From contig NC_134025.1 of the NCBI RefSeq assembly GCF_964204645.1, positions 31,104,299 through 31,168,298 on the forward strand: a DNA stretch of 64,000 bases, written 5' to 3'. Each line of letters begins with the position of its first letter. Position 1 is the stretch's first letter. Under the pieces are notes generated by a model. The model was not told where the DNA came from. It saw only the letters and a program-made list of their open reading frames with translations, and did no database searches. Source of the DNA: Tubulanus polymorphus. Taxonomy: Eukaryota; Animalia; Nemertea. A program made the translations under genes and the position numbers. Positions 55,701 to 56,866 of this stretch are shown one piece after another.

Positions 55701-56866
55701 AGAGCTGCGTGTGTATTCACGTATAAACCCATCGGAGTTTCTTTAGCTATATACGCTACCTCAGTTTTACCGGTCAAGTTTATAAATACGTCAAGGATTG
55801 GTAGAACGATGACCACCACTCAAACGTGGTGAACGGATAATAAGATAAAATCCCACTATTTACAGATTAAAAGAATTTAAAAACCAGAATTCATCTATTA
55901 AATCTAAAATATTTAAAAGACAAGACGTTTCGATCTCACCCTTTGACACCTGACGATGATCTCTAGGGTGAGATCGAAACGTCGTGTCTTTTAAATATTT
56001 TAGATTTAACAAATAAATTCTGGTTTTTAAATTCTTTTAATCTGTAAATAGTGGGATTTTATCTTATTACGTCAAGGATTGTTTATAATTGAGAGTTACA
56101 TTCAACGACGGAGATAAACATCGAAATGATGCGACACAAATGACAGTAGAACTGTTTTGATGAGTAAAAGGATATAGTAATTAGACATCCGTGCCAGGTA
56201 AACACAGCTACTTTAGCACTGGACGAAAATACATACTTCTTACCAATAGCGAGTTCTGAACCAAATATTTCAGCTTTACCTTCGACCAACTAAACAACAA
56301 TGTTCAGTAAAATATCAACATCATTTCATTGATTTTTAGAATCAGCGGTAATTAGTTACTGACTGATTTACCTCTATTGTTACTTGAGCTCCCGATTCAA
56401 CTTCAAATCTTAATTCTGTATCTGCTTCCAATTTATATTCATTCTTTGTCACCTTTACAAATAAATCAATAAAGAATTATTATGTCAGTTTTCAGGAGCA
56501 GCAGTTCTTCATGGGTAGGTGCTGGTAGGGCCCATAGGTCACATTTGATAATGAACCGTGACAAGTCCCAGTGGGTAGGCTGGTCAGGAGATGAATGAGG
56601 GATGGGTTTCTTTTAGTCGATTGTTACCAAAAAGGGGAACCCCGTAGGTACACAACTACGTCAACATGGTCTGGTTGTTGGTATTCGTCCGAAACATTTC
56701 AATAAGTACACATCAGAGACAGAGATTAAACTAAAGATAAGGACTAACATATATTCATAAGAAACCTATTCATTTTTGTACTTTGTTGTAGTATCAGATC
56801 AGGATGCAATGGAATCATTGAAATCAAATTTATACCTACATCTAAATCATTTCCTTCCGAAGCCAT
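52721..56866 (-). CDS. CLP1: Polyribonucleotide 5'-hydroxyl kinase Clp1; 12 exons (56866-56840, 56452-56372, 56289-56176, 55777-55655, 55218-55077, 54966-54793, 54618-54529, 54401-54301, 53938-53800, 53722-53642, 53006-52913, 52832-52721)
   Basis: [25 protein letters not shown]-loop [44 protein letters not shown]-terminal QFMDIR*; third intron is AT-AC. Confidence 0.96.
53032..53254. mobile_element. MITE with ~33-bp TIRs in a CLP1 intron
   Basis: aggccaaaaaaaattgataccttgtttctccgc ... gcggagaaacaaggtatcatttttgtttagcct. Confidence 0.8.
55275..55548. repeat. 47-bp tandem repeat (~5.5 copies) matching the interior of the 10405-type MITE
   Basis: catcttagttctataaccaatctaacaacttaagacc is shared with 10454-10490 and 11766-11800. 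Confidence 0.85.
55778..56175 (-). other. U12-type (minor spliceosome) AT-AC intron in CLP1
   Basis: 5' end ATATCCTTT, branch TCCTTGAC, 3' end ..TTATAAAC; removal joins [16 protein letters not shown] in frame, matching recalled CLP1 spacing. Confidence 0.9.
55801..56067. mobile_element. Penelope-derived inverted-repeat insertion containing a minimal hammerhead (55945-55988, + strand)
   Basis: ~103-bp inverted arms (55839-55942 vs 55965-56068); gacac-CTGACGA-t-gatctc..gagatc-GAAAC-GTC-gtgtc; 14-bp TSD tacgtcaaggattg at 55787-55800 and 56068-56081. Confidence 0.88.

Follow-up and report, generated by a model that had tools for sequence, protein, structure and literature searches.

The window analysed here, a 64,000-nucleotide stretch of the Tubulanus polymorphus genome (contig NC_134025.1, positions 31,104,299 to 31,168,298), carries the essential gene CLP1 on its minus strand. 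The translations of all five exons match CLP1_N or CLP1_P, four of them above the Pfam cut-off, and the one CLP1 exon tested genome-wide was found at a single locus. Two CLP1_N exons, placed by a contig joint and Pfam matches at 56176–56289 (upstream, minus strand) and 55655–55777 (downstream, minus strand), are separated by an intron at 55778–56175 (minus strand). Read from 56175 to 55778, this intron opens with the 5′ splice site ATATCCTTT and closes with AC, and its ends agree with the exon joint in the contigs. A 14-nt repeat within it includes TCCTTGAC, placing a branch site of the form CCTTRAC within the characteristic 11–13 nt of the intron end. Together with a U12 snRNA gene in the genome (111.8 bits), these features identify a U12-type AT-AC intron. 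Its length is 398 nt, or 117 nt after removal of the insert described below and one repeat copy. CLP1 is not mentioned in PMC10639083.

Several other repeats lie in or near the gene. A 46-bp tandem duplication at 54947–55037 covers the acceptor of a major-type CLP1 intron further along the gene and creates two AG dinucleotides 46 nt apart, of which the contigs of sequencing runs X2 and X5 use the downstream one; it is the second 3′ splice signal duplicated within CLP1. The intron that follows the U12-type intron is filled, at 55276–55580, by 6.4 copies of a 47-bp tandem repeat that belongs, according to the contigs, to a very high-copy family. By eye, a directly duplicated segment of about 230–250 nt was noticed at 56870–57330, upstream of the CLP1 exons.

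The 14-nt sequence of the U12-type intron occurs as an exact direct repeat at 55787–55800 and 56068–56081 (both read on the minus strand), with a spacing of 281 nt. The original prediction described this repeat as a 14-bp target duplication that is itself the CLP1 branch site, and the branch motif indeed lies inside it. The branch adenosine would be at 56072 in the upstream copy and at 55791 in the downstream copy, the likely working branch site, 13 nt from the AC. A hairpin with arms of about 103 bp had been expected between the two copies; the inverted arms, at 55838–55942 and 55965–56069, measure 105 nt each and are 96% complementary. The predicted fold of the sense-strand intron reaches −185 kcal/mol (z −23), and none of 100 shuffled sequences was as stable. 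The arms are mismatched at 55892, 55895, 56010 and 55923, and three of these four mismatches are A-to-G changes on the CLP1 sense strand that keep G-U pairing. Selection for a sense-strand stem was considered on this basis and rejected, as three events are too few.

Each part of the insert could be assigned to the same mobile element. On the plus strand, 55946–56067 is an element copy without a tail that runs from the likely transcription start through a hammerhead motif to a short 3′ end, as judged from boundary statistics and a 99.2% match to other genomic copies. On the minus strand, arm alignment and family comparison place at 55838–55942 an inverted copy that is 5′-truncated within the hammerhead and keeps its GAAAC-GUC half. 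The 37 nt that separate the downstream repeat from the stem (55801–55837, minus strand), which had not been named before, are by family comparison the Penelope tail and run on from the inverted copy without a break; in a tandem element, the long reading frame has its first in-frame ATG directly after the 37-nt tail. The insert is composed of two head-to-head copies of the element’s likely 5′ leader, one ending short and the other adding the tail.

This arrangement is repeated genome-wide. All 40 scored candidates, out of 1545 from a first look, match the hairpin almost end to end, and exact copies number at least 143 for the core, at least 397 for the arm ends and at least 257 for the tail. 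Longer copies run upstream into a reverse transcriptase (RT) frame (RVT_1, E 1.8e-9) and a GIY-YIG frame (E 0.0016, under the Pfam cut-off). At one locus (L055), RT is followed by GIY-YIG with a GVYKIPC...YFGET motif, and the same hammerhead leader comes directly after them; at another (L181, G000:C2:14490500-14495000) a tandem unit has a frameshifted RT frame between two leaders spaced 2391 nt apart. With an RT and C-terminal GIY-YIG parent, a partial tandem with pLTRs, and a tail at one end joined to an inverted 5′-truncated copy, the parent is, judged by its sequence, a Penelope-like element (PLE), which agrees with the Penelope origin first proposed for the hairpin. By eye, no Cys cluster is present in the translated linker between RT and endonuclease, where an extra Zn-finger-like motif would point to Neptune or Nematis, and because of this plain linker the Poseidon/Penelope clade is likely. 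A second family copy in the window, delimited by family alignment at 42644–42767 (plus strand), had been described as a near-identical module. Its 98.4% match to the right arm confirms the likeness, but it is a single arm with a hammerhead and a short inversion on its 5′ side, and it has neither the long hairpin nor the tail. No target duplication was found at this copy (the best candidate was 4 nt), and identical relatives of it exist in the genome.

The inverted copies of the family share one pattern of ends. Among 86 distinct sites pooled, 58 are inverted pairs, and every one of these combines a single tail end with a single short end. Thirty of the 58 were selected with a hairpin query; the arm-end set, which was not tail-selected, gave the same result in 13 of 13 pairs. 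A second tail was found at none of 115 tail-anchored sites. Within a tail sample of 89 sites (the first 100 listed of the 257 tails, minus 11 already counted in other sets), 49 have an inverted short-end partner within 480 nt, and the 5′ boundary of the longer arm falls within 3 nt of one position in 40 and more than 9 nt further upstream in 17. The median span of the inverted pairs is 245 nt (n = 49). Fourteen long copies, including L070, L121 and L146, were scored with the TATA and initiator consensus sequences: among those matching the TATA pattern, the TATA-like box starts 31 nt before the initiator-like A of the clustered 5′ boundary in 13 of 14 and 30 nt before it in one. The initiator-like motif lies at the 5′ edge of the hammerhead, where the short copies begin. 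We infer that transcription of the element starts at the clustered boundary and that the short copies arose as cDNAs running from either of two internal start points back to the RNA 5′ end. For an Anolis element studied in vitro, PMC11167929 reports that both strands are cut and extended, that the target sites are rich in AT and that the tail is delimited by two start points. The one-tail pairs and the 5′ ends at a TATA/initiator-like start are probably the footprint to be expected if two nicks use two internal start points and copy to the RNA 5′ end, and part of this footprint may perhaps already be contained in the supplements of that paper.

Comparison with known systems places the insert within PLE biology. 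The Tubulanus element shares with the Penelope/Poseidon insertions described in PMC8557442 and PMC2377424 an RT followed by GIY-YIG, a partial tandem, a pLTR hammerhead, an inverted copy and a tail at one end; PMC8557442 describes PLE insertions with inverted 5′-truncated copies and a 30–40 bp tail at one end. In contrast to those insertions, the commonest Tubulanus form is a fold-back of roughly 250 nt without coding sequence. Whereas Penelope of D. virilis is described as having a TATA-less internal promoter (PMC2377424), the 5′ ends of the Tubulanus element cluster 31 nt below a TATA-like box. PAc, the Poseidon element of Anolis carolinensis (PMC11167929), resembles it in its AT-rich targets, in the cutting and extension of both strands and in two internal start points bounding the tail. 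Both elements also place an AUG at the start of helix II, with a distance between short end and AUG of 111–118 nt in PAc and about 110–113 nt in Tubulanus. However, the Tubulanus AUG opens only 12 codons, and the first ATG of the long frame follows the tail, unlike in PAc as reported there. Head-to-head products that end at the transcription start are a feature of the Tubulanus family, and none is described for PAc in the available text of PMC11167929. A hypothetical intron in the leader, linking the helix II AUG with the long frame, was considered and rejected, as no in-frame junction was seen by eye. The helix II loop region of the element contains a donor-like G/GTGAGA, present here at 55938–55945 (minus strand) and 55963–55973 (plus strand); in the predicted fold of the CLP1 sense strand it falls within the stem, and no copies spliced at it were seen in the family alignments examined.

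At 55945–55988 on the plus strand, antisense to CLP1, lies a minimal type I hammerhead motif with the core CUGACGA and GAAAC-GUC and a predicted cut after 55983. It has a helix I of 5 bp, an extra U, a 6-bp helix II and no helix III; the sequence features of minimal PLE hammerheads, namely the CUGANGA / GAAA / UH core, helices I and II and a palindromic 15.2–16.2, are all present. The complete core claimed for this strand is thereby confirmed with one correction, in that helix I comprises 4 bp in the element family and its fifth pair at the CLP1 copy is supplied by a junction G. It was also correctly noted that the CLP1 sense strand carries only the GAAAC-GUC half; no CUGANGA is found there. 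A scan with Rfam gave 21 matches at E ≤ 1, all under the gathering score and none to a hammerhead, the miRNA matches being hairpin look-alikes; the Rfam models presumably expect a helix III. Most other look-alike matches stem from a (CTG)34 run and a 41-bp palindrome-rich tandem repeat (49586–49687 and 50539–50855). Short helix I, long helix II, an extra base before G10.1, the G10.1-C11.1 pair, the palindromic 15.2–16.2 and the missing helix III are common to this motif and the metazoan PLE hammerheads described in PMC4209133, which also notes hammerhead pairs 100–700 bp apart on opposite strands. Unlike these, the CLP1 copy runs antisense to the host pre-mRNA and is, by prediction, trapped in a 105-bp stem. 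Non-LTR retrozymes (bioRxiv 10.64898/2026.07.22.740005) are likewise described as non-coding, PLE-derived and equipped with a type I hammerhead, but they form head-to-tail tandems with one ribozyme per unit. The CLP1 insert is a head-to-head pair with one complete motif, and complete cores on both strands were found in none of 49 sampled inverted pairs, so that identity with non-LTR retrozymes was rejected. The CLP1 insert itself has the usual short form of this abundant Penelope-like element; what is unusual is where it landed.

Splicing of the intron was followed in four of six sequencing runs (X1, X2, X3 and X5). The contigs of X2 and X5, which come from two studies, skip exactly 398 nt with a joint at 55777–56176, and their source samples S2 and S3 may or may not carry the insert; X1 and X3 are unspliced and DNA-like, and X2 and X5 are called RNA-like from intron skipping alone. 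X5 departs from the window at 6–7 letters in one exon. Missing cover of the intron’s unique 5′ part in X2 and X5 was not counted as evidence, and as contigs lose rare isoforms, minor intron retention or use of the AG at +9 of the upstream branch copy would be invisible in them. The downstream branch copy is followed by AC at +13, and the contigs splice at that AC, so the branch-to-AC spacing was preserved as originally proposed. The upstream copy is followed by AG at +9 and AC at +21, both predicted to lie in the stem, and by neither AC nor AG at +10 to +15. Because the stem begins 3 nt past the branch adenosine, the modelled unpaired probability of positions +8 to +14 is 0.0. An optimum of 11–13 nt between branch site and 3′ end is given in PMC3584512, where AT-AG ends appear disfavoured. 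Folding had been expected to bring the two branch sites close; about 50 unpaired nucleotides (3 + 47) would separate them with the stem closed, although no contact between them is predicted. The duplex energies with U12 snRNA (−6.2 versus −7.5) came from differing, partly spurious registers and were not used. In our model, the downstream copy at 55791 is likely the working branch site.

The suggestion that the upstream copy acts as a decoy has to be weighed against these data. As a decoy or attenuator, it would capture U11/U12 at the ancestral distance and slow splicing or divert it to the +9 AG, thereby lowering or tuning CLP1 output. The two copies are identical over 14 nt, and since the upstream core is predicted to be about as open as the downstream one (0.56 versus 0.47) and keeps the original distance from the 5′ splice site, some U12 binding there is possible. 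A U12 snRNA gene is available in the genome, and use of the +9 AG would yield a stop after 12 codons. The three arm mismatches that stay G-U paired on the sense strand also speak for it, but such a bias in three events arises by chance once in eight. The stretch in which a usable AC or AG would have to lie contains neither and is fully paired in the model, and the spliced contigs cross the intron unbroken. We consider a decoy unlikely. A related scenario, in which the stem would steer U12 towards one or the other branch copy, the downstream one being productive and the upstream one having its AG buried, and unwinding or editing would tune CLP1 output, appears decidedly unlikely.

Two further possibilities concern the ribozyme and the insert allele itself. 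Antisense RNA might cleave itself, or element RNA might provide the CUGANGA half in trans and cut CLP1 pre-mRNA at GUC; both ideas had been raised as conceivable. The core bases are intact on the plus strand, folding of the right arm by itself yields helices I and II (predicted p ≥ 0.9), and a transcript of the right arm only is conceivable by analogy with the internal promoter described for Penelope of D. virilis (PMC2377424). However, in the fold of the whole insert the predicted probabilities of both helices are 0.0 and the hammerhead fold would cost 33 kcal/mol, the motif lacks helix III, and the TATA-like box and initiator-like motif of the long copies are absent from the CLP1 copy. Among the 49 sampled inverted pairs, 11 have a complete core, which is predicted to be fully sequestered in six and not in five. 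A single minimal motif gave no detectable cleavage and dimers only low activity in the experiments described in PMC4209133, and the Anolis motif is reported to require the element’s protein (PMC11167929). On the sense strand, the GAAAC-GUC half is predicted to be paired within the stem, and a rare G-to-U change at 55923, directly after the cut site, creates a U-C mismatch that breaks the first helix I pair. Given the predicted sequestered fold, the lack of detectable cleavage by a single motif of this class and the paired and mismatched sense half, antisense cleavage and complementation are both unlikely, and a ribozyme effect as a whole seems to us extremely improbable; according to the model, the hammerhead at CLP1 is likely cargo. 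The insert allele could instead be harmful and merely segregating, or be mis-assembled, with the clean spliced contigs derived from insert-free alleles, as S2 and S3 may be insert-free. One X1 contig bridges the left junction with 41 letters within the element; a second one reaches 25 letters into the right end, fewer than the 31-letter rule applied here demands, and its flank carries six letters not found in the window and a 6-nt insertion. Contigs thus enter the element from both flanks, albeit over only 25 letters on the right side. Neither contig breaks at the duplication, as would be expected with an empty second allele, and the one with the non-window flank also enters the element. We infer that the second haplotype of this sample, which may be the assembly’s own, also carries the insert and that no empty allele is present in it. 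The CLP1 copy has furthermore gathered five differences in 264 nt, each found in at most 3% of the aligned family matches; for this reason it is not among the newest insertions, in contrast to the 42644 copy with its identical relatives. A harmful, segregating or mis-assembled insert is accordingly very unlikely.

The family’s target sites give no sign that branch sites are sought out. Target duplications of at least 9 nt flank 59 of 73 inverted pairs, with a mode of 12–13 nt and an AT content of 68%. The motif CCTT[AG]A[CT] occurs in one of these 59, the CLP1 site itself, and four others match a loose motif only; the target preference that the original prediction had proposed to examine thus shows no enrichment for the branch motif, and branch-site targeting by the element was rejected. 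A sharp cut-site motif was rejected as well, since only weak A-rich and T-rich flanks are visible and these are confounded by microhomology. If 500–1500 sites and 200–800 U12 introns are assumed, a duplication that spans a whole U12 branch site is expected with a probability of 0.2–2.7% per genome, which we judge to be rare, yet unremarkable when many genomes and element families are scanned. Any insertion breaking the splice signal was likely lost.

Taken together, the insert is a short fold-back copy of a Penelope-like element that likely landed by chance on the branch site of the CLP1 minor intron and probably persists as a tolerated passenger. The probable reason for its tolerance is that, through the target duplication, a whole branch site still stands 13 nt ahead of the AC. 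We propose the following hypothetical sequence of events, in which (i) the element’s enzyme would nick both strands about 12–14 nt apart in AT-rich DNA; (ii) priming would occur at the tail start point on one DNA end and at the short start point on the other; (iii) both cDNAs would run back toward the RNA 5′ end and then be joined head to head; (iv) the minor spliceosome would use the downstream branch copy, while the predicted 105-bp stem would fold the insert aside and bury the sole AG and AC found near the upstream copy. Decoy and ribozyme functions of the insert are unsupported. In the literature searched by titles and the starts of abstracts, with subscription journals mostly outside its reach, no report was found of a transposon duplicating a U12 branch site. 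With two identical branch sites in one intron, the CLP1 locus offers a natural experiment on branch-site choice by the minor spliceosome, and it exemplifies a target duplication that keeps a splice signal instead of destroying it. The one-tail pattern found across the family is the better lead and may matter more to retroelement specialists than the CLP1 locus itself.
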